Under the pieces are notes generated by a model that searched no databases, was not told the DNA's origin, and saw only the letters and a list, made by a program, of their open reading frames with translations. Below, piece by piece: positions 36,689-62,660 of a stretch of 64,000 nt of DNA (position 1 is its first letter; every line of letters begins with the position of its first letter). The DNA is from Escherichia coli (GTDB taxonomy: Bacteria > Pseudomonadota > Gammaproteobacteria > Enterobacterales > Enterobacteriaceae): assembly GCF_024700885.2 (NCBI RefSeq), contig NZ_CP117016.1; one strand, 5' to 3'. A program made the position numbers and the translations under genes.

Positions 36689-36964
36689 GTGGCTTCTGTT
36701 TCTATCAGCTGTCCCTCCTGTTCAGCTACTGACGGGGTGGTGCGTAACGGCAAAAGCACCGCCGGACATCAGCGCTATCTCTGCTCTCACTGCCGTAAAA
36801 CATGGCAACTGCAGTTCACTTACACCGCTTCTCAACCCGGTACGCACCAGAAAATCATTGATATGGCCATGAATGGCGTTGGATGCCGGGCAACTGCCCG
36901 CATTATGGGCGTTGGCCTCAACACGATTTTACGTCACTTAAAAAACTCAGGCCGCAGTCGGTAA
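36689..36964 (+). CDS. insA: IS1 InsA (transposition inhibitor / N-terminal part of InsAB' transposase)
   Basis: 91-aa [43 protein letters not shown] (zinc-finger CxxC...CxxC). Confidence 0.9.
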
Positions 36965-37386
36965 CCTCGCGCATACAGCCGGGCAGTGACGTCATCGTCT
37001 GCGCGGAAATGGACGAACAGTGGGGCTATGTCGGGGCTAAATCGCGCCAGCGCTGGCTGTTTTACGCGTATGACAGTCTCCGGAAGACGGTTGTTGCGCA
37101 CGTATTCGGTGAACGCACTATGGCGACGCTGGGGCGTCTTATGAGCCTGCTGTCACCCTTTGACGTGGTGATATGGATGACGGATGGCTGGCCGCTGTAT
37201 GAATCCCGCCTGAAGGGAAAGCTGCACGTAATCAGCAAGCGATATACGCAGCGAATTGAGCGGCATAACCTGAATCTGAGGCAGCACCTGGCACGGCTGG
37301 GACGGAAGTCGCTGTCGTTCTCAAAATCGGTGGAGCTGCATGACAAAGTCATCGGGCATTATCTGAACATAAAACACTATCAATAA
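36883..37386 (+). CDS. insB: IS1 InsB frame (expressed as InsAB' transposase by -1 frameshift)
   Basis: ORF in the -1 frame relative to insA; slippery A6C motif at 36940-36946 inside the insA/insB overlap. Confidence 0.85.
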
Positions 37387-41266: not shown

Positions 41267-42145
41267 ATGTTTGATTTTGCTTCTTACCATCGCGCAGCAA
41301 CCCTTGCCGATGCCATCAACCTGCTGGCTGACAACCCACAGGCCAAACTGCTCGCCGGTGGCACTGACGTACTGATTCAGCTCCACCATCACAATGACCG
41401 TTATCGCCATATTGTTGATATTCATAATCTGGCGGAGCTGCGGGGAATTACGCTAGCGGAAGATGGCTCACTACGTATCGGCTCTGCAACGACATTTACC
41501 CAGCTCATTGAAGATCCTGTAACTCAACGTCATCTCCCAGCGTTATGTGCTGCGGCCTCGTCCATTGCCGGACCGCAGATCCGTAACGTCGCTACCTACG
41601 GTGGAAATATTTGCAACGGTGCTACCAGTGCAGATTCTGCCACGCCAACGCTAATTTATGACGCGAAACTGGAGATTCACTCCCCGCGCGGTGTTCGTTT
41701 CGTCCCGATTAATGGCTTTCACACTGGGCCGGGCAAAGTGTCTCTTGAGCATGACGAAATCCTTGTCGCCTTTCATTTTCCGCCCCAGCCGAAAGAACAC
41801 GCGGGCAGCGCGCATTTTAAATATGCCATGCGCGACGCAATGGATATTTCAACGATTGGCTGCGCCGCACATTGCCGACTGGATAACGGCAATTTCAGCG
41901 AATTACGCCTGGCATTTGGTGTTGCCGCGCCAACGCCAATTCGCTGCCAACATGCCGAACAGACTGCACAAAATGCGCCATTAAACCTGCAAACACTGGA
42001 AGCCATCAGCGAATCAGTCCTGCAAGATGTCGCCCCGCGTTCTTCATGGCGGGCCAGTAAAGAGTTTCGTCTGCATCTCATCCAGACGATGACCAAAAAA
42101 GTGATTAGCGAAGCCGTCGCCGCGGCGGGGGGAAAATTGCAATGA
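41267..42145 (+). CDS. xdhB: Xanthine dehydrogenase FAD-binding subunit
   Basis: 292-aa CO dehydrogenase flavoprotein-like ORF (GGTDVL motif); overlaps xdhC start (ATGA). Confidence 0.95.
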
Positions 42146-42621
42146 ATCACAGCGAAACAATCACCATCGAATGCACCATTAACGGGATGCCTTTTCAGCT
42201 TCACGCCGCACCAGGCACGCCGCTCTCGGAATTACTCCGCGAACAAGGACTGCTAAGTGTCAAACAAGGGTGCTGCGTGGGTGAATGTGGTGCCTGTACG
42301 GTGCTGGTCGACGGCACAGCAATAGACAGTTGCTTATACCTTGCCGCCTGGGCTGAAGGAAAAGAGATCCGCACGCTGGAAGGTGAAGCGAAAGGCGGAA
42401 AACTTTCTCATGTACAGCAGGCTTATGCTAAATCCGGCGCAGTGCAGTGCGGGTTTTGTACGCCTGGCCTGATTATGGCTACCACAGCAATGCTGGCGAA
42501 ACCACGCGAGAAGCCATTAACCATTACGGAAATTCGTCGCGGACTGGCGGGAAATCTTTGTCGCTGCACGGGGTATCAGATGATTGTAAATACAGTTCTG
42601 GATTGCGAGAAAACGAAGTAA
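42142..42621 (+). CDS. xdhC: Xanthine dehydrogenase [2Fe-2S] subunit
   Basis: 159-aa ORF with both 2Fe-2S cysteine motifs ([11 protein letters not shown] ... QCGFCTPG ... CRCTGY). Confidence 0.95.
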
Positions 42622-54533: not shown

Positions 54534-57500
54534 ATGGGGGATATTATGCGTCCCATTCCGTTTGAGGAACTTTTGACGCGCATATTTGATGAATACCAAC
54601 AACAACGCTCAATCTTTGGTATTCCCGAGCAACAGTTTTACTCACCCGTAAAAGGTAAAACTGTTAGCGTCTTCGGTGAAACCTGTGCCACTCCCGTCGG
54701 CCCTGCCGCTGGCCCGCACACGCAGCTCGCGCAAAATATTGTCACTTCCTGGCTGACTGGCGGGCGCTTCATCGAACTAAAAACCGTCCAAATTCTTGAC
54801 CGTCTGGAGCTGGAAAAGCCCTGTATCGATGCCGAAGACGAGTGCTTTAACACCGAATGGTCTACCGAATTTACCCTGCTTAAAGCCTGGGATGAATACC
54901 TCAAAGCCTGGTTTGCCCTGCACCTTCTCGAAGCGATGTTCCAGCCTTCTGATTCCGGTAAATCGTTCATCTTTAATATGAGCGTCGGTTATAACCTCGA
55001 AGGTATTAAGCAACCGCCGATGCAACAGTTCATCGACAATATGATGGATGCATCTGACCATCCGAAATTCGCTCAATATCGCGATACGCTGAATAAATTA
55101 CTCCAGGATGACGCATTTTTAGCCCGCCACGGATTGCAGGAAAAACGCGAATGCCTGCAGGCCTTACCGGCACGCATCCCCACCAGCATGGTAGAAGGCG
55201 TTACCCTCTCCACCATGCACGGCTGTCCTCCGCATGAAATCGAAGCCATTTGCCGCTACATGCTGGAAGAAAAAGGGCTCAATACCTTTGTGAAACTCAA
55301 CCCGACCTTACTGGGGTACGCGCGTGTTCGTGAGATCCTCGATGTCTGCGGTTTCGGTTACATAGGCTTAAAAGAAGAGTCATTTGATCACGACCTCAAG
55401 CTGACGCAAGCGCTGGAAATGCTGGAACGCCTGATGGTACTGGCAAAAGAAAAATCACTCGGCTTTGGCGTAAAACTGACTAACACTCTCGGCACCATCA
55501 ACAATAAAGGCGCACTGCCTGGTGAAGAGATGTATATGTCAGGCCGTGCGCTGTTCCCGCTCTCCATCAATGTTGCAGCAGTTCTCTCTCGCGCCTTTGA
55601 CGGCAAACTGCCCATTTCTTATTCCGGTGGTGCCAGTCAGCTGACTATCCGCGATATTTTTGATACTGGTATTCGCCCTATTACTATGGCAACCGACCTG
55701 CTGAAACCTGGCGGCTATCTGCGCTTAAGTGCCTGCATGCGCGAGCTGGAAGGCTCCGACGCCTGGGGGCTTGACCATGTTGACGTCGAACGCCTGAACA
55801 AACTGGCAGCAGACGCGTTAACCATGGAATACACTCAGAAACACTGGAAGCCAGAAGAGCGTATTGAAGTGGCAGAAGACCTGCCGCTGACCGACTGCTA
55901 CGTTGCACCGTGCGTTACTGCTTGCGCCATTAAACAGGATATTCCGGAATACATCCGTCTGCTTGGCGAACACCGCTATGCCGACGCACTGGAACTCATC
56001 TACCAACGCAACGCCCTGCCCGCCATTACCGGTCATATTTGCGATCACCAGTGCCAATACAACTGTACCCGCCTGGATTACGACAGTGCGCTGAATATCC
56101 GCGAACTGAAAAAAGTCGCGCTGGAAAAAGGTTGGGATGAATATAAGCAACGCTGGCACAAACCAGCCGGTTCTGGTTCACGCCATCCGGTTGCCGTGAT
56201 TGGTGCAGGTCCGGCGGGTCTGGCAGCAGGTTACTTCCTTGCCAGAGCGGGCCATCCGGTTACGCTGTTTGAACGCGAAGCCAATGCGGGCGGCGTGGTG
56301 AAAAATATCATTCCTCAGTTCCGTATTCCTGCAGAGTTAATTCAGCACGATATCGATTTTGTTGCCGCTCACGGCGTGAAATTTGAGTATGGCTGCTCAC
56401 CCGATTTGACCGTTGAACAGTTAAAAAATCAGGGCTTCCACTATGTTCTGATTGCCACCGGCACTGATAAAAATAGCGGTGTGAAACTGGCGGGCGACAA
56501 CCAAAATGTCTGGAAATCACTCCCCTTCCTGCGTGAATACAACAAGGGCACAGCGCTCAAGCTGGGCAAACATGTGGTCGTTGTCGGGGCGGGTAACACG
56601 GCAATGGACTGCGCTCGTGCGGCGTTACGCGTTCCAGGCGTAGAAAAAGCAACGGTCGTTTACCGTCGTTCACTGCAAGAGATGCCAGCATGGCGCGAAG
56701 AGTATGAAGAAGCGTTGCACGACGGTGTGGAGTTCCGTTTCCTGAATAATCCGGAACGTTTCGATGCTGATGGCACCTTAACCTTGCGCGTTATGTCGCT
56801 TGGCGAACCTGATGAGAAAGGTCGTCGCCGTCCGGTTGAAACCAACGAAACAGTAACACTGCATGTAGACAGCCTGATCACCGCCATTGGTGAACAGCAG
56901 GATACTGAAGCCCTGAATGCGATGGGCGTGCCGCTGGACAAAAACGGCTGGCCAGACGTCGACCATAATGGCGAAACTCGTCTGACTGACGTCTTTATGA
57001 TCGGCGACGTACAGCGCGGACCATCCTCCATTGTCGCTGCTGTCGGAACCGCGCGTCGGGCGACCGATGCCATCCTTAGTCGGGAAAACATCCGTTCCCA
57101 CCAGAACGATAAATACTGGAACAACGTCAATCCGGCGGAAATCTATCAACGCAAAGGCGATATCTCTATCACCCTGGTGGATAGCGACGATCGTGACGCG
57201 TTTGTCGCCCAGGAAGCCGCACGCTGCCTTGAATGTAACTACGTTTGCAGCAAGTGTGTGGATGTCTGCCCGAACCGCGCCAACGTATCCATTGCGGTCC
57301 CTGGCTTCCAGATCCGTTTCCAGACGCTGCACCTCGACGCTTACTGTAACGAATGCGGCAACTGCGCTCAGTTCTGCCCGTGGAACGGTAAACCGTACAA
57401 AGACAAAATCACCGTCTTCAGCCTGTCGCAAGACTTTGATAACAGCAGCAACCCTGGCTTCCTTGTGGAAGATTGCCGGGTACGAGTACGTCTGAATAAC

Positions 57501-57632
57501 CAAAGCTGGGTGTTAAACATCGACAGCGAAGGTCAGTTCAACAACGAACCACCGGAGCTGAACGATATGTGCCGCATTATTAGCCATGTCCACCAGCATC
57601 ATCATTATCTGCTGGGCCGCGTGGAGGTGTAA
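54534..57632 (+). CDS. ygfK: Large Fe-S flavoprotein oxidoreductase (GltD-like FAD/NAD(P) domain + 2x[4Fe-4S])
   Basis: 1032-aa ORF; dinucleotide-binding VAVIGAGPAGLAAG; ferredoxin-type motifs CLECNYVCSKCVDVCP and CNECGNCAQFCP. Confidence 0.9.
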   Translation: MGDIMRPIPFEELLTRIFDEYQQQRSIFGIPEQQFYSPVKGKTVSVFGETCATPVGPAAGPHTQLAQNIVTSWLTGGRFIELKTVQILDRLELEKPCIDAEDECFNTEWSTEFTLLKAWDEYLKAWFALHLLEAMFQPSDSGKSFIFNMSVGYNLEGIKQPPMQQFIDNMMDASDHPKFAQYRDTLNKLLQDDAFLARHGLQEKRECLQALPARIPTSMVEGVTLSTMHGCPPHEIEAICRYMLEEKGLNTFVKLNPTLLGYARVREILDVCGFGYIGLKEESFDHDLKLTQALEMLERLMVLAKEKSLGFGVKLTNTLGTINNKGALPGEEMYMSGRALFPLSINVAAVLSRAFDGKLPISYSGGASQLTIRDIFDTGIRPITMATDLLKPGGYLRLSACMRELEGSDAWGLDHVDVERLNKLAADALTMEYTQKHWKPEERIEVAEDLPLTDCYVAPCVTACAIKQDIPEYIRLLGEHRYADALELIYQRNALPAITGHICDHQCQYNCTRLDYDSALNIRELKKVALEKGWDEYKQRWHKPAGSGSRHPVAVIGAGPAGLAAGYFLARAGHPVTLFEREANAGGVVKNIIPQFRIPAELIQHDIDFVAAHGVKFEYGCSPDLTVEQLKNQGFHYVLIATGTDKNSGVKLAGDNQNVWKSLPFLREYNKGTALKLGKHVVVVGAGNTAMDCARAALRVPGVEKATVVYRRSLQEMPAWREEYEEALHDGVEFRFLNNPERFDADGTLTLRVMSLGEPDEKGRRRPVETNETVTLHVDSLITAIGEQQDTEALNAMGVPLDKNGWPDVDHNGETRLTDVFMIGDVQRGPSSIVAAVGTARRATDAILSRENIRSHQNDKYWNNVNPAEIYQRKGDISITLVDSDDRDAFVAQEAARCLECNYVCSKCVDVCPNRANVSIAVPGFQIRFQTLHLDAYCNECGNCAQFCPWNGKPYKDKITVFSLSQDFDNSSNPGFLVEDCRVRVRLNNQSWVLNIDSEGQFNNEPPELNDMCRIISHVHQHHHYLLGRVEV

Positions 57633-57634
57633 TC

Positions 57635-58963
57635 ATGTTGATTCTGAAGAATGTCACCGCAGTGCAGTTACACCCGGCGAAAGTGCAGGAAGGCGTTGAT
57701 ATCGCCATCGAAAATGATGTGATTGTCGCTATCGGCGATGCCCTGACGCAACGCTACCCCGATGCCAGCTACAAAGAGATGCATGGTCGGATTGTGATGC
57801 CAGGAATTGTCTGCTCGCACAACCATTTTTACTCGGGGCTGTCCCGCGGAATTATGGCAAACATCGCCCCCTGCCCGGATTTCATCTCAACGCTGAAAAA
57901 TCTCTGGTGGCGACTCGATCGCACCCTTGATGAAGAGTCGCTCTATTACAGCGGACTGATTTGTTCCCTGGAAGCGATTAAGGGCGGATGTACATCGGTT
58001 ATCGATCACCATGCCTCTCCGGCGTATATCGACGGGTCGCTCTCCACATTGCGCAACGCATTTTTAAAAGTTGGCCTGCGCGCGATGACCTGTTTTGAAA
58101 CTACTGACCGTAACAACGGTATCAAAGAGTTGCAGGAAGGTGTAGAAGAAAACATCCGCTTCGCCCGTCAGATTGATGAGGCGAAGAAAGCAGCAACCGA
58201 ACCGTATCTGGTGGAAGCACATATCGGCGCTCACGCGCCGTTTACCGTGCCGGATGCCGGTCTGGAGATGCTGCGTGAAGCCGTGAAAGCCACAGGTCGT
58301 GGTTTGCACATTCACGCTGCGGAAGACCTTTATGACGTTTCCTACAGTCACCACTGGTACGGCAAAGACCTGCTGGCACGACTGGCGCAATTCGATCTCA
58401 TCGACAGCAAAACGCTGGTCGCTCATGGGCTGTACTTGTCGAAAGATGACATCGCCCTACTCAATCAGCGCGATGCGTTCCTAGTGCATAACGCCCGTTC
58501 AAACATGAACAACCATGTCGGCTACAACCATCACCTTAGCGACATCCGCAATCTGGCGTTGGGAACTGACGGCATTGGTTCGGACATGTTTGAAGAGATG
58601 AAATTTGCCTTCTTTAAACATCGCGATGCGGGTGGTCCGCTGTGGCCTGACAGTTTTGCCAAAGCACTGGCTAACGGCAACGAACTGATGAGCCGCAACT
58701 TTGGCGCGAAATTTGGCCTTCTGGAAGCCGGTTACAAAGCCGATTTAACCATTTGCGATTACAACTCGCCGACACCGCTGCTGGCAGACAATATCGCCGG
58801 GCATATCGCTTTCGGTATGGGCTCAGGCAGCGTTCATAGCGTGATGGTCAATGGCGTGATGGTCTATGAAGACCGTCAGTTTAACTTCGATTGCGATTCC
58901 ATTTATGCGCAAGCCAGAAAAGCCGCTGCCAGTATGTGGCGTCGGATGGATGCGCTGGCATAA
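57635..58963 (+). CDS. ssnA: Amidohydrolase (cytosine/guanine deaminase-like)
   Basis: 442-aa ORF with metal-binding HxH (CSHNHFY); 2 nt after ygfK stop. Confidence 0.9.
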   Translation: MLILKNVTAVQLHPAKVQEGVDIAIENDVIVAIGDALTQRYPDASYKEMHGRIVMPGIVCSHNHFYSGLSRGIMANIAPCPDFISTLKNLWWRLDRTLDEESLYYSGLICSLEAIKGGCTSVIDHHASPAYIDGSLSTLRNAFLKVGLRAMTCFETTDRNNGIKELQEGVEENIRFARQIDEAKKAATEPYLVEAHIGAHAPFTVPDAGLEMLREAVKATGRGLHIHAAEDLYDVSYSHHWYGKDLLARLAQFDLIDSKTLVAHGLYLSKDDIALLNQRDAFLVHNARSNMNNHVGYNHHLSDIRNLALGTDGIGSDMFEEMKFAFFKHRDAGGPLWPDSFAKALANGNELMSRNFGAKFGLLEAGYKADLTICDYNSPTPLLADNIAGHIAFGMGSGSVHSVMVNGVMVYEDRQFNFDCDSIYAQARKAAASMWRRMDALA

Positions 58964-59013: not shown

Positions 59014-59793
59014 ATGATTGAACAATTTTTCAGGCCCGACTCTGTCGAACAGGCGCTGGAACTGAAGCGCCGCTACAAGGATGAAGCCGTCTGGTTCGCC
59101 GGGGGCAGCAAACTCAACGCTACACCAACCCGTACCGATAAAAAGATTGCCATTTCCTTACAGGATCTGGAACTGGACTGGGTTGACTGGGATAACGGTG
59201 CACTGCGGATTGGCGCAATGTCTCGCTTGCAGCCACTGCGTGATGCGCGATTTATTCCTGCAGCACTGCGTGAAGCCCTCGGCTTTGTCTACTCTCGCCA
59301 TGTTCGTAATCAGTCGACCATTGGTGGTGAAATCGCCGCCCGGCAGGAAGAGTCTGTGCTGCTTCCCGTCCTGCTGGCACTGGATGCTGAACTGGTTTTT
59401 GGCAATGGCGAAACACTGTCAATCGAAGAGTACCTGGCCTGCCCATGCGATCGCCTGCTAACCGAAATTATCATTAAAGATCCGTATCGCACCTGTGCGA
59501 CCCGCAAAATTAGCCGTTCTCAGGCAGGTTTAACCGTCGTGACGGCAGCCGTTGCAATGACAGACCACGACGGTATGCGAATTGCGCTGGATGGCGTCGC
59601 CAGTAAAGCCCTGCGTCTGCACGATGTTGAAAAACAAAATCTGGAAGGCAATGCACTTGAACAGGCTGTCGCCAACGCCATTTTCCCGCAGGAAGATTTG
59701 CGGGGCAGCGTGGCCTATAAACGCTATATCACGGGAGTTCTGGTAGCCGACCTTTATGCCGACTGCCAACAGGCTGGGGAGGAAGCCGTATGA
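59014..59793 (+). CDS. ygfM: FAD-binding molybdopterin dehydrogenase subunit
   Basis: 259-aa CO dehydrogenase flavoprotein-like ORF; overlaps xdhD start by 4 nt. Confidence 0.9.
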   Translation: MIEQFFRPDSVEQALELKRRYKDEAVWFAGGSKLNATPTRTDKKIAISLQDLELDWVDWDNGALRIGAMSRLQPLRDARFIPAALREALGFVYSRHVRNQSTIGGEIAARQEESVLLPVLLALDAELVFGNGETLSIEEYLACPCDRLLTEIIIKDPYRTCATRKISRSQAGLTVVTAAVAMTDHDGMRIALDGVASKALRLHDVEKQNLEGNALEQAVANAIFPQEDLRGSVAYKRYITGVLVADLYADCQQAGEEAV

Positions 59794-62660
59794 TCATCCA
59801 CTTTACTTTAAATGGCGCGCCTCAGGAGCTAACCGTTAATCCAGGCGAAAACGTGCAAAAGCTGTTGTTTAACATGGGAATGCACTCTGTACGCAACAGC
59901 GATGATGGATTCGGGTTTGCCGGTTCTGACGCAATTATCTGTAACGGTAATATCGTTAACGCGTCCTTGCTTATCGCCGCACAGTTAGAGAAGGCAGATA
60001 TTCGTACCGCAGAGTCTCTGGGCAAATGGAACGAGTTAAGTCTGGTTCAACAGGCAATGGTTGATGTTGGCGTGGTGCAGTCTGGTTATAACGATCCAGC
60101 TGCGGCTCTGATTATCACCGATCTTCTCGATCGCATTGCCACACCGACCCGCGAAGAGATCGACGACGCGCTTTCTGGTTTGTTCAGCCGCGATGCAGGC
60201 TGGCAACAATACTATCAGGTCATTGAACTGGCGGTTGCACGTAAAAATAATCCGCAGGCCACCATTGATATCGCTCCAACTTTCCGCGATGACCTTGAAG
60301 TCATTGGTAAGCATTATCCTAAAACTGATGCCGCGAAAATGGTGCAGGCGAAACCCTGCTATGTTGAAGACCGCGTAACGGCTGACGCCTGCGTCATTAA
60401 AATGTTACGTAGCCCACACGCTCACGCACTGATTACTCATCTGGATATCAGCAAAGCTGAAGCCTTACCGGGCGTTGTTCACGTTATTACTCACCTGAAT
60501 TGCCCGGATATCTACTATACCCCGGGCGGTCAGAGCGCACCGGAACCGTCACCGCTTGACCGCCGTATGTTCGGCAAGAAAATGCGTCACGTCGGCGATC
60601 GCGTTGCTGCGGTCGTCGCTGAAAGTGAAGAAATTGCGCTCGAAGCACTGAAGCTCATCGACGTTGAATATGAAGTGCTTAAACCTGTAATGTCGATCGA
60701 CGAAGCAATGGCGGAAGATGCGCCTGTCGTGCACGATGAACCGGTGGTGTATGTTGCTGGTGCGCCAGATACTCTGGAAGACGATAACAGCCATGCAGCC
60801 CAGCGCGGCGAACATATGATCATCAACTTCCCGATCGGTTCTCGCCCCCGTAAAAATATCGCCGCCAGTATTCATGGTCATATTGGCGATATGGACAAAG
60901 GCTTTGCCGATGCCGATGTGATCATTGAGCGAACCTATAACTCAACGCAGGCACAGCAGTGCCCGACTGAAACACATATCTGCTTTACCCGTATGGACGG
61001 CGATCGTCTGGTGATCCACGCCTCCACCCAGGTACCATGGCACTTACGCCGCCAGGTCGCGCGCCTCGTGGGCATGAAACAGCATAAAGTTCATGTCATT
61101 AAAGAGCGAGTTGGCGGCGGTTTTGGTTCCAAACAAGACATCCTGCTGGAAGAAGTGTGCGCCTGGGCAACCTGCGTGACCGGACGTCCGGTACTGTTCC
61201 GCTACACCCGTGAAGAAGAGTTTATTGCTAACACCTCTCGCCACGTCGCGAAAGTCACCGTCAAACTGGGCGCGAAAAAAGATGGTCGCCTGACGGCAGT
61301 GAAGATGGATTTCCGCGCCAACACGGGCCCTTACGGCAACCACTCACTCACCGTACCGTGTAACGGACCGGCGCTGTCGCTGCCGTTATATCCGTGTGAT
61401 AACGTCGATTTCCAGGTCACCACCTACTACAGCAACATTTGCCCAAATGGTGCTTATCAGGGTTATGGCGCGCCGAAAGGTAACTTCGCTATCACCATGG
61501 CATTAGCGGAACTGGCTGAACAGTTACAGATCGACCAGCTGGAAATTATCGAACGTAACCGTGTACACGAAGGGCAAGAGCTGAAAATTCTCGGTGCAAT
61601 CGGTGAAGGTAAAGCGCCGACCTCCGTTCCTTCCGCCGCCAGCTGCGCACTGGAAGAGATCCTGCGTCAGGGTCGCGAGATGATCCACTGGTCGTCACCG
61701 AAACCGCAAAATGGTGACTGGCACATCGGTCGCGGCGTCGCCATTATCATGCAGAAATCGGGTATCCCAGATATCGATCAGGCTAACTGCATGATCAAAC
61801 TGGAATCGGACGGCACCTTTATCGTTCATTCTGGCGGTGCGGATATTGGTACTGGTTTGGATACTGTGGTGACGAAACTGGCAGCAGAAGTGCTGCACTG
61901 CCCACCGCAGGACGTGCATGTTATCTCCGGTGATACCGATCATGCGTTGTTTGATAAAGGCGCATATGCCTCGTCCGGTACTTGCTTCTCGGGTAACGCG
62001 GCGCGTTTGGCAGCAGAAAATCTGCGGGAGAAAATTCTGTTCCACGGTGCACAAATGTTGGGTGAGCCAGTGGCAGATGTCCAACTAGCAACGCCGGGCG
62101 TCGTGCGCGGCAAGAAAGGCGAAGTTAGTTTCGGGGATATTGCCCATAAAGGCGAAACCGGCACCGGCTTTGGTTCACTGGTGGGAACTGGCAGTTATAT
62201 CACGCCTGATTTCGCCTTCCCGTATGGCGCAAACTTCGCTGAAGTTGCCGTCAACGCGCGTACGGGTGAAATCCGCCTGGATAAATTCTACGCCTTGCTG
62301 GACTGCGGTACACCGGTCAACCCGGAATTAGCATTGGGACAAATCTACGGTGCTACCCTGCGAGCTATCGGCCACAGTATGAGCGAAGAGATCATTTATG
62401 ACGCCGAAGGTCACCCGTTAACGCGTGATTTACGCAGTTACGGTGCACCGAAAATTGGTGACATTCCGCGTGATTTCCGCGCAGTGCTGGTGCCGAGCGA
62501 CGATAAAGTCGGCCCGTTCGGGGCGAAATCGATCTCGGAAATCGGTGTAAATGGCGCAGCTCCGGCGATTGCTACCGCAATTCACGATGCCTGCGGCATC
62601 TGGTTACGCGAATGGCATTTCACACCGGAGAAAATACTCACCGCGCTGGAAAAAATATAA
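59790..62660 (+). CDS. xdhD: Molybdopterin-binding hydroxylase with degenerate N-terminal Fe-S-like domain (putative hypoxanthine/purine oxidase)
   Basis: 956-aa ORF; C-terminal about 780 aa is aldehyde oxidase/XDH Mo-binding type; N-terminal about 165 aa aligns to XdhC but carries a single cysteine. Confidence 0.9.
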   Translation: MIIHFTLNGAPQELTVNPGENVQKLLFNMGMHSVRNSDDGFGFAGSDAIICNGNIVNASLLIAAQLEKADIRTAESLGKWNELSLVQQAMVDVGVVQSGYNDPAAALIITDLLDRIATPTREEIDDALSGLFSRDAGWQQYYQVIELAVARKNNPQATIDIAPTFRDDLEVIGKHYPKTDAAKMVQAKPCYVEDRVTADACVIKMLRSPHAHALITHLDISKAEALPGVVHVITHLNCPDIYYTPGGQSAPEPSPLDRRMFGKKMRHVGDRVAAVVAESEEIALEALKLIDVEYEVLKPVMSIDEAMAEDAPVVHDEPVVYVAGAPDTLEDDNSHAAQRGEHMIINFPIGSRPRKNIAASIHGHIGDMDKGFADADVIIERTYNSTQAQQCPTETHICFTRMDGDRLVIHASTQVPWHLRRQVARLVGMKQHKVHVIKERVGGGFGSKQDILLEEVCAWATCVTGRPVLFRYTREEEFIANTSRHVAKVTVKLGAKKDGRLTAVKMDFRANTGPYGNHSLTVPCNGPALSLPLYPCDNVDFQVTTYYSNICPNGAYQGYGAPKGNFAITMALAELAEQLQIDQLEIIERNRVHEGQELKILGAIGEGKAPTSVPSAASCALEEILRQGREMIHWSSPKPQNGDWHIGRGVAIIMQKSGIPDIDQANCMIKLESDGTFIVHSGGADIGTGLDTVVTKLAAEVLHCPPQDVHVISGDTDHALFDKGAYASSGTCFSGNAARLAAENLREKILFHGAQMLGEPVADVQLATPGVVRGKKGEVSFGDIAHKGETGTGFGSLVGTGSYITPDFAFPYGANFAEVAVNARTGEIRLDKFYALLDCGTPVNPELALGQIYGATLRAIGHSMSEEIIYDAEGHPLTRDLRSYGAPKIGDIPRDFRAVLVPSDDKVGPFGAKSISEIGVNGAAPAIATAIHDACGIWLREWHFTPEKILTALEKI

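Follow-up and report, generated by a model that had tools for sequence, protein, structure and literature searches.

XdhD of Escherichia coli has a conserved N-terminal domain in which the ligands of both [2Fe-2S] clusters are replaced

The subject of this analysis is xdhD, a gene in a 64,000-nucleotide stretch of Escherichia coli DNA (contig NZ_CP117016.1 of assembly GCF_024700885.2; hereafter the window). It encodes the molybdenum subunit of a urate-reducing enzyme whose partner is YgfM, a subunit that binds flavin adenine dinucleotide (FAD). Alignments indicate that the N-terminal domain of XdhD descends from the module that carries two [2Fe-2S] clusters in xanthine-oxidase-family enzymes. 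All eight cysteine ligands are replaced, and the domain almost certainly binds neither cluster. Judged by its divergence, the domain, together with the replacement residues, is under purifying selection as strong as that in cluster-binding relatives. Furthermore, losses of this kind recur among the related sequences, and in them it is the flavin-side cluster that goes first.

Results

Residues 1-177 of XdhD align with XdhC, the iron-sulphur (Fe-S) subunit of the canonical enzyme XdhABC encoded in the same window, with 33% identity over 141 residues (BLASTP, E 2e-21). In a phmmer search against solved structures the XdhD domain matched four Fe-S subunits: 3HRD_D was the best (1.2e-16), and the others were 4ZOH_C (6.4e-12), 1T3Q_A and 1RM6_C. 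Pfam Fer2_2 (PF01799) was found at residues 73-145 (5.2e-12), and Fer2 (PF00111) was not detected in the Pfam search of XdhD. The likeness to XdhC that an earlier note on this DNA had seen in the layout of the two proteins is thus borne out by both pairwise and profile alignment.

That note had also claimed that the cluster-ligating cysteines of XdhC are replaced in XdhD, and this is true of all eight (alignment columns DADS/SNSD). The XdhC ligands C44, C49, C52 and C64 of the flavin-side cluster, Fe/S II, align with D38, A44, D47 and S59 of XdhD, and the ligands C103, C106, C140 and C142 of the molybdenum-side cluster, Fe/S I, align with S98, N101, S133 and D135. Neither the Fe/S II pattern C-x4-C-x2-C-xn-C nor the Fe/S I pattern C-x2-C ... 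C-x-C retains any of its four cysteines. The motif QCGxC has become QSGYND and CRC has become SRD, and the same replaced motifs are visible in the alignments to 3HRD_D, 4ZOH_C and 1T3Q_A. The loss is not an alignment artefact, because 34 of 39 fused homologues in a representative set, aligned by the same procedure, have all eight cysteines.

Orthologues tell the same story. The set comprised 119 sequences of at least 74% identity from Enterobacterales, Photobacterium and Paludibacterium; 113 of them read DADSSNSD in the eight ligand columns, and none of the 119 has a cysteine in any of these columns. The single cysteine that the earlier note had counted in the domain does exist here (C51), although sequence comparison marks it as a polymorphism of this strain: codon 51 encodes Phe in 89 orthologues and Leu in 17, with Cys in only 2, and in 43 of the 119 the domain has no cysteine at all. 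A substitute conserved cysteine motif, sought elsewhere in XdhD across the cysteine-less group, was not found; C398 is the sole enriched cysteine in this group and stands as a single residue. The earlier proposal that XdhD is probably unable to bind the two clusters is therefore strongly supported by the sequences. The canonical chain of the family runs from Mo through Fe/S I and Fe/S II to FAD (PMC12316806), and since the ligands are gone and no substitute motif replaces them, this chain would be absent in XdhD.

The word relic, in the sense of decay, does not suit the domain. Constraint on it is unchanged by the loss of the cysteines, because the ratio of N-terminal to molybdenum-domain divergence is equal in the two groups (1.16-1.60 for cysteine-less pairs and 1.21-1.55 for eight-cysteine pairs), and the replacement residues are almost invariant. 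Conserved pseudo-cofactor domain is a better term. These data are consistent with the structural role that the earlier note had allowed for.

An AlphaFold2 model of XdhD, built on a 37-sequence alignment, has a mean predicted local distance difference test (pLDDT) score of 89.3, with residues 1-170 at 83-96 per 10-residue block. In the N-terminal domain its predicted secondary structure comprises a beta-grasp half and then a four-helix bundle, as in Fer2 plus Fer2_2. The best Foldseek matches of the whole chain are the fused enzymes 1SIJ and 1DGJ, which carry the Fe-S and molybdenum cofactor (Moco) domains in one chain (template modelling score 0.84-0.90). Because the whole chain superposes on these structures, the N-terminal domain is predicted to keep its canonical docking position. 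Structure prediction of XdhD thus yields a confident fold for the domain, in its usual place.

Outside the N-terminal domain, few positions separate the cysteine-less from the eight-cysteine proteins, and E606 is nearly invariant. Residue 885 (62442-62444) is Gly in all cysteine-less proteins of the core clade, while its counterpart is Lys (Y-K-x-P) in E. coli XdhA and in most eight-cysteine relatives of the core clade. The K885G change, which within the core clade is 100% group-specific, was considered as a covarying cluster contact and rejected, since most independent cysteine-less lineages keep K or H; on this comparison it is a lineage marker only.

In a survey of one genome per species, 79 loci were found in many phyla. 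Eight-cysteine proteins (ligand columns CCCCCCCC) occur within the core clade in Spirochaetes and several other phyla, and many are present in a Chloroflexi-dominated clade. Proteins with half of the ligands lost (D-x-D-x followed by CCCC) come mostly from Chloroflexi metagenome-assembled genomes (MAGs), plus locus L002. Proteins with none (D-x-D-x-S-N-x-x, or ATDE/STSD followed by SSDE) are found in Proteobacteria, Spirochaetes, Clostridiales, a Bacteroidetes MAG, Chloroflexi, and Actinobacteria and Acidobacteria MAGs. The same replacements as in E. coli are present in Enterobacterales, Aeromonas, Photobacterium, Rhodocyclaceae, Spirochaetes, Clostridiales and the one Bacteroidetes MAG. The replacement sets vary by lineage (DADS/SNSD, DADN/SNID and ATDE/SSDE), and the residues at the lost ligand positions converge on Asp, Glu, Ser and Asn.

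Both eight-cysteine proteins (L014, 1301 bits; L028, 1219) and cysteine-less ones (L015, 1284; E. coli, 2116) pass the curated TIGR03313 cutoff of 1101.9, so that the 'Fe-S-binding' in the name of this family is not true of every member. The Spirochaete loci of both kinds share the gene order ygfK-ssnA-ygeY-ssnA'-ygfM-xdhD-ygeW.

Neighbour-joining trees were made of the N-terminal domain, with the ligand columns masked, and of the molybdenum domain. In the masked tree all the cysteine-less domains of the core clade cluster together, which suggests a single loss event within this clade. The molybdenum-domain tree leaves the order of the core-clade groups unresolved, and the monophyly of the cysteine-less group in this clade rests on the masked tree. 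Separate complete losses occur in the adjacent clade, which is mostly Chloroflexi and lies at about 37% identity, under the TIGR03313 cutoff; one half-lost group in that clade is the sister of a fully lost pair. From these patterns at least three complete losses may be counted, a number that is only an estimate because the trees carry no support values. In the half-lost forms (L002, L061, L070, L071, L077, L079, L083 and protein P0096) the Fe/S II ligands are replaced and the Fe/S I cysteines kept; the reverse, with Fe/S I lost and Fe/S II kept, was never seen among the surveyed loci and proteins.

This distribution bears on two simple explanations of the missing ligands. If xdhD were decaying in this E. 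coli, or if the sequence or its annotation were at fault, the replacements should be a local matter. However, of 5426 complete E. coli genomes 5176 carry the xdhD region at 95-100% DNA identity, the same replacements occur across several phyla, and the enzyme is active (PMC12507026). A strain artefact is refuted by the E. coli-wide presence and the cross-phylum replacements, and we give it practically no weight; only C51 is strain-specific.

Asp and Ser occasionally ligate Fe-S clusters, and XdhD might still carry its clusters through Asp, Ser and Asn ligands or borrow them in trans from an Fe-S subunit such as XdhC. The location of xdhC in the same supercluster, 17 kb upstream, and the annotation 'Mo/Fe-S-binding subunit' could be taken in the same sense. 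Yet cysteine is lacking at the eight positions in every orthologue, one position is Ala, the ligand sets differ between lineages, which is unexpected for a conserved metal site, and the pseudo-domain is predicted to sit in the binding place of XdhC. Moreover, Li et al. 2025 (PMC12507026) reported a protein of about 30 kDa as the only partner that co-purifies with XdhD, without a band at 17 kDa, and a delta-xdhA strain still accumulates 2,8-dioxopurine (PMC12507026). Residual or borrowed clusters are therefore very improbable.

The genes of a canonical three-subunit xanthine dehydrogenase (XDH), including a separate Fe-S subunit, adjoin ygfM-xdhD in 11 of 19 cysteine-less core loci (L007, L010, L012, L013, L019, L025, L038, L042, L045, L049 and L068) and in none of 8 eight-cysteine loci (L017, L018, L022, L024, L026, L028, L030 and L035). 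The association (Fisher p = 0.008) is uncorrected for shared ancestry and, within the core clade, derives from a single loss event. For this reason, and since the pseudo-domain is predicted to fill the XdhC site, the adjacent genes were rejected as a source of clusters in trans.

The same adjacency can be accommodated by a ping-pong reaction at an insulated molybdenum, in which hydroxylation of a reducing purine or another donor at Mo(VI) is followed by dehydroxylation of urate at Mo(IV) of the same site. Such an enzyme would do without a wire, and loss of the wire would stop the leakage of reducing equivalents. Such a reaction would also fit a loss that is recurrent and directional, apparently in at least three lineages, and a Clostridium sporogenes homologue that works in both directions. 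It is nonetheless improbable. First, NADH was the sole reductant supplied in the published assay (PMC12507026). Second, a delta-xdhA strain left xanthine unconsumed, in cultures with glucose, which is said to repress wild-type urate degradation (PMC12507026). Third, the active site does not look retooled, given the few group-specific positions and the nearly invariant E606. Finally, the retention of YgfM would be left unexplained.

In all three states, nearly all loci for which upstream sequence was available have a ygfM-like gene directly upstream, and nearly all of these partners retain the motifs AGG(T/S) and R-N-x-A-T-x-G-G. E. coli YgfM itself matches FAD_binding_5 (1.2e-19) and, weakly, CO_deh_flav_C in Pfam, and keeps the motifs AGGS and TIGGE. 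Across loci L001-L085, the segment that follows the FAD motif GGN/GGE (residues about 103-113, window about 59320-59350) differs with the state of XdhD. It reads K-S-C-x-S-L in most core-clade partners of eight-cysteine proteins and D/E-S in partners of cysteine-less ones, including most of those from the independent Chloroflexi/Actinobacteria lineage. The switch may represent co-adaptation at the interface between the flavin and the former Fe/S II. A commentary gives an AlphaFold3 interface score (ipTM) of 0.94 for XdhD-YgfM and calls YgfM "the electron-transfer module" (PMC12990295). A 1215-residue YgfM-XdhD fusion, P0247 (43 member sequences in the Logan assemblies; junction VSGSRPVCRLPTGWGGSR-MIIHF), was rejected as such, because it contains a frameshift near the ygfM 3' end.

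These observations must be weighed against the possibility that electrons bypass the FAD of YgfM. They could come from a diffusible reduced carrier that enters by the substrate funnel, or from another Fe-S protein, such as YgfT, AegA, YgfS or YgfK, that docks close to the pterin. In that case the role of YgfM would be mainly structural or of another kind, and the NADH activity observed in vitro an adventitious one. In favour of a bypass, the canonical wire is absent, the Fe-S flavoproteins AegA and YgfT are needed in E. coli for its formate-dependent degradation of urate, the clostridial homologue does not use NAD(P)H, and the E. coli assay was an end-point measurement at 10 µM enzyme. However, YgfM retains its FAD motifs and its adjacency to xdhD throughout the cysteine-less clade, the pseudo-domain is predicted to occupy a partner's approach to the pterin, and no partner gene tracks the loss, since eight-cysteine and cysteine-less relatives share the same neighbours. 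We regard a bypass as less likely than not, yet as nearly as likely as the long tunnelling step discussed below. The earlier note had suggested a path via YgfK in particular. This is unsupported: YgfK acts on its own substrate, 2,8-dioxopurine, with its own NAD(P)H dependence (PMC12507026; bioRxiv 10.1101/2025.04.24.650524), its presence is independent of the cysteine state, and purified XdhD-YgfM makes its product with NADH without YgfK.

Genomic context and annotation

The features discussed above are listed in Table 1. Over its first 531 bases xdhD shows 100% DNA identity to the gene of E. coli SMS-3-5 (NC_010498). The stop codon of ygfM and the start codon of xdhD share the bases ATGA at 59790-59793, which suggests translational coupling of the two subunits. 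Besides the N-terminal domain, Pfam identifies Ald_Xan_dh_C (PF01315) at residues 187-298 (1.3e-30), MoCoBD_1 (PF02738) at 355-590 (3.8e-72) and MoCoBD_2 (PF20256) at 639-893 (2.1e-67). XdhD thus has the hammerhead and the two molybdopterin-binding domains of a molybdenum subunit of the xanthine oxidase family. The TIGR03313 profile for XdhD/YgfN, whose title is 'molybdopterin-dependent oxidoreductase Mo/Fe-S-binding subunit', matches it with 2115.7 bits over profile positions 1-951. RefSeq calls the full protein 'Mo/Fe-S-binding subunit' and gives N-terminal fragments the name '2Fe-2S iron-sulfur cluster-binding protein'; the JGI name is 'putative selenate reductase molybdopterin-binding subunit'. 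Judged by the ligand columns, the Fe-S names are unfit for the E. coli protein. Upstream of the xdh cluster, between unrelated genes, the open reading frame (ORF) at 36883-37386 (+) is presumably an IS1 InsB transposase, of which its sequence is typical.

Table 1. Positions of xdhD, its sites and the context genes within the window
Feature	Position	Strand	Description
xdhD (956 residues)	59790..62660	+	ORF; codons 1-167 are the pseudo-[2Fe-2S] domain, 59790..60290
xdhD N-terminal domain halves	within 59790..60290	+	beta-grasp half and four-helix half
Former Fe/S II site (plant-ferredoxin type, flavin-side)	59901..59966	+	D38 (59901-03), A44 (59919-21), D47 (59928-30), S59 (59964-66)
C51 (TGT)	59940-59942	+	xdhD codon 51, inside the former Fe/S II site
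Former Fe/S I site (Mo-side)	60081..60194	+	S98 (60081-83), N101 (60090-92), S133 (60186-88), D135 (60192-94)
xdhD remainder: linker, a/b hammerhead, two molybdopterin-binding domains (catalytic)	60291..62660	+	Pfam, TIGR03313
ygfM, FAD-binding subunit	59014..59793	+	FAD_binding_5, TIGR03312 (487 bits)
xdhC, canonical 2x[2Fe-2S] subunit of XdhABC, comparator	42142..42621	+	NF007387 (341.9 bits); eight ligand Cys present
ygfK and ssnA, context genes upstream in the same cluster (next pathway steps)	54534..58963	+	TIGR03315 (1774 bits)

Discussion

The explanation that we favour, with a confidence only a little better than even when taken as a whole, is that the N-terminal domain of XdhD is a cofactor-free structural adaptor, one product of a loss that happened several times, and that the canonical chain is absent. 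The domain would survive because it completes the fold of the molybdenum subunit and provides the surface on which YgfM is seated. The residues D38, D47, D135, S98 and N101 would fill the anion-binding pockets that formerly held the clusters, the carboxylates probably lying in pockets once shaped for the cluster-thiolate unit, which is negatively charged.

The route of the electrons is the more tentative part of this explanation. In bovine XDH and carbon monoxide dehydrogenase (CODH), the cofactor distances are about 14.7 Å from Mo to Fe/S I, 12.4 Å from Fe/S I to Fe/S II and 8 Å from Fe/S II to FAD. Theoretically, the FADH2 of YgfM could reduce the pterin and molybdenum by one long tunnelling step of about 20-25 Å across the fossil domain, a possibility to which we attach rather less than an even chance. 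With these distances, the Moser-Dutton expression taken from PMC8097209 would give a single-step rate of about 0.01-10 per second. We propose that so slow a step is tolerated because 6-dehydroxylation of urate is itself slow or of low flux. If Fe/S II only were lost, the gap between the flavin and Fe/S I would be about 17-20 Å and the rate between about 10 and a few hundred per second, which would explain why the flavin-side cluster goes first.

Several points weigh against the adaptor and its long tunnelling step. The distances come from bovine XDH and CODH and not from a model of XdhD-YgfM. A step of 20-25 Å exceeds the usual limit of 14 Å for physiological electron transfer, and it would be unusual for a clade that persists across several phyla. 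That E. coli XdhD was assayed at a higher enzyme concentration is no more than a circumstantial sign of slowness. The adaptor role is drawn from conservation, not from an interface analysis, and the absence of the clusters is read from sequence only.

If the relay is indeed missing, XdhD-YgfM and its cysteine-less relatives in several phyla might be the first members of their enzyme family to work through a flavin subunit with no Fe-S relay at all. They would do so either by a step of more than 20 Å through a fossil domain in whose cluster pockets carboxylates mimic the charge, or by a molybdenum that selection has insulated and that is reduced at the active site. We consider this distinctly unlikely at present. 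If it were true, the repeated flavin-side-first loss would mark a general evolutionary path along which the wire disappears from reductive molybdenum dehydroxylases.

Neither the gene nor the enzyme is new. Earlier reviews treat XdhD only as an uncharacterised homologue of XDH, and Haft and Self (2008) list YgfN only as "selenate reductase, Mo-binding subunit". Two papers of 2025 established XdhD-YgfM as an NADH-dependent urate-to-2,8-dioxopurine reductase, and in neither are the missing clusters mentioned. In one of them, E. coli XdhD at 10 µM with 1 mM NADH formed 2,8-dioxopurine from urate, detected by liquid chromatography-mass spectrometry at an end-point, and the XdhD-YgfM complex was modelled on the Rhodobacter capsulatus XDH; the Fe-S clusters or cysteines of XdhD are never mentioned in it (PMC12507026). 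The kinetic parameters of XdhD are still to be determined according to PMC12990295. The published roles of ygfK and ssnA are those of an NAD(P)H:2,8-dioxopurine reductase and a ring-opening amidohydrolase. Literature other than subscription journals and database notes was searched, and nowhere in it was XdhD found to be described as lacking the cluster ligands; reports of metal content or of spectra of XdhD were likewise found in none of the papers searched. What appears to be unreported is the state without clusters, together with its conservation and recurrence and the way it conflicts with the published picture of electron transfer.

In gut bacteria the anaerobic urate pathway begins with the reaction of XdhD, and work is under way to engineer this pathway into probiotics that counter hyperuricaemia and gout. 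The two descriptions of 2025 both cast YgfM as an electron-transfer module after the pattern of xanthine dehydrogenase, whereas the sequence indicates that the relay is absent. This has consequences for the design of assays, for the flux-limiting donor in engineered strains, and for the choice of orthologue, since eight-cysteine versions exist in the same family. The natural series of eight-, four- and zero-cysteine proteins also allows a direct test of the need for an Fe-S relay. In a wider sense, XdhD would be a clear case of a cofactor-binding domain that is selected after loss of its cofactor, with convergent carboxylate replacements.

Comparison with known systems

The closest known counterparts of XdhD are the eight-cysteine members of TIGR03313 (for example L014, L028 and L035). 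Their full-length identity to XdhD is 50-55%, they share its architecture of an N-terminal Fe-S-type domain, a hammerhead and two Moco domains, and a ygfM-like gene stands directly upstream; those in Spirochaetes also share the neighbours ygfK, ssnA, ygeY and ygeW. They keep all eight ligands and can have a normal chain, whereas E. coli XdhD keeps none. Among solved structures, the best structural match is the aldehyde oxidoreductase (MOP) of Desulfovibrio gigas and D. desulfuricans (1SIJ, 1VLB and 1DGJ), about 900 residues with the same fused order of an Fe-S-type part and a Moco part. MOP has two [2Fe-2S] clusters and no FAD subunit, and XdhD has a FAD subunit and no cluster ligands.

E. coli XdhABC and the Rhodobacter and bovine XDHs consist of the same three modules (Moco, Fe-S-type and FAD) as XdhD-YgfM. 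In these canonical enzymes the clusters form an obligatory wire (PMC12316806) and xanthine is converted to urate, while XdhD converts urate to 2,8-dioxopurine, apparently without the wire. The XdhAC of C. sporogenes, a 2,8-dioxopurine dehydrogenase compared here by its published description, performs the same 6-dehydroxylation of urate with a fused Fe-S-type and Moco chain. Unlike XdhD, it is described with Fe-S binding domains and was assayed with methyl viologen and dithionite, at 0.001 mg/ml, and it does not use NADH or NADPH (Stanford preprint, 10.1101/2025.04.24.650524).

Finally, 4-hydroxybenzoyl-CoA reductase (1RM6) is the best sequence match of XdhD among solved molybdenum subunits (8.5e-80). 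Like XdhD, it belongs to the reductive dehydroxylases within the xanthine oxidase family. It retains its two [2Fe-2S] clusters, and its FAD subunit has an additional [4Fe-4S] cluster for the input of low-potential electrons. In a sense, the two enzymes represent opposite evolutionary solutions, one with an extra cluster and the other, as far as its sequence tells, with none.

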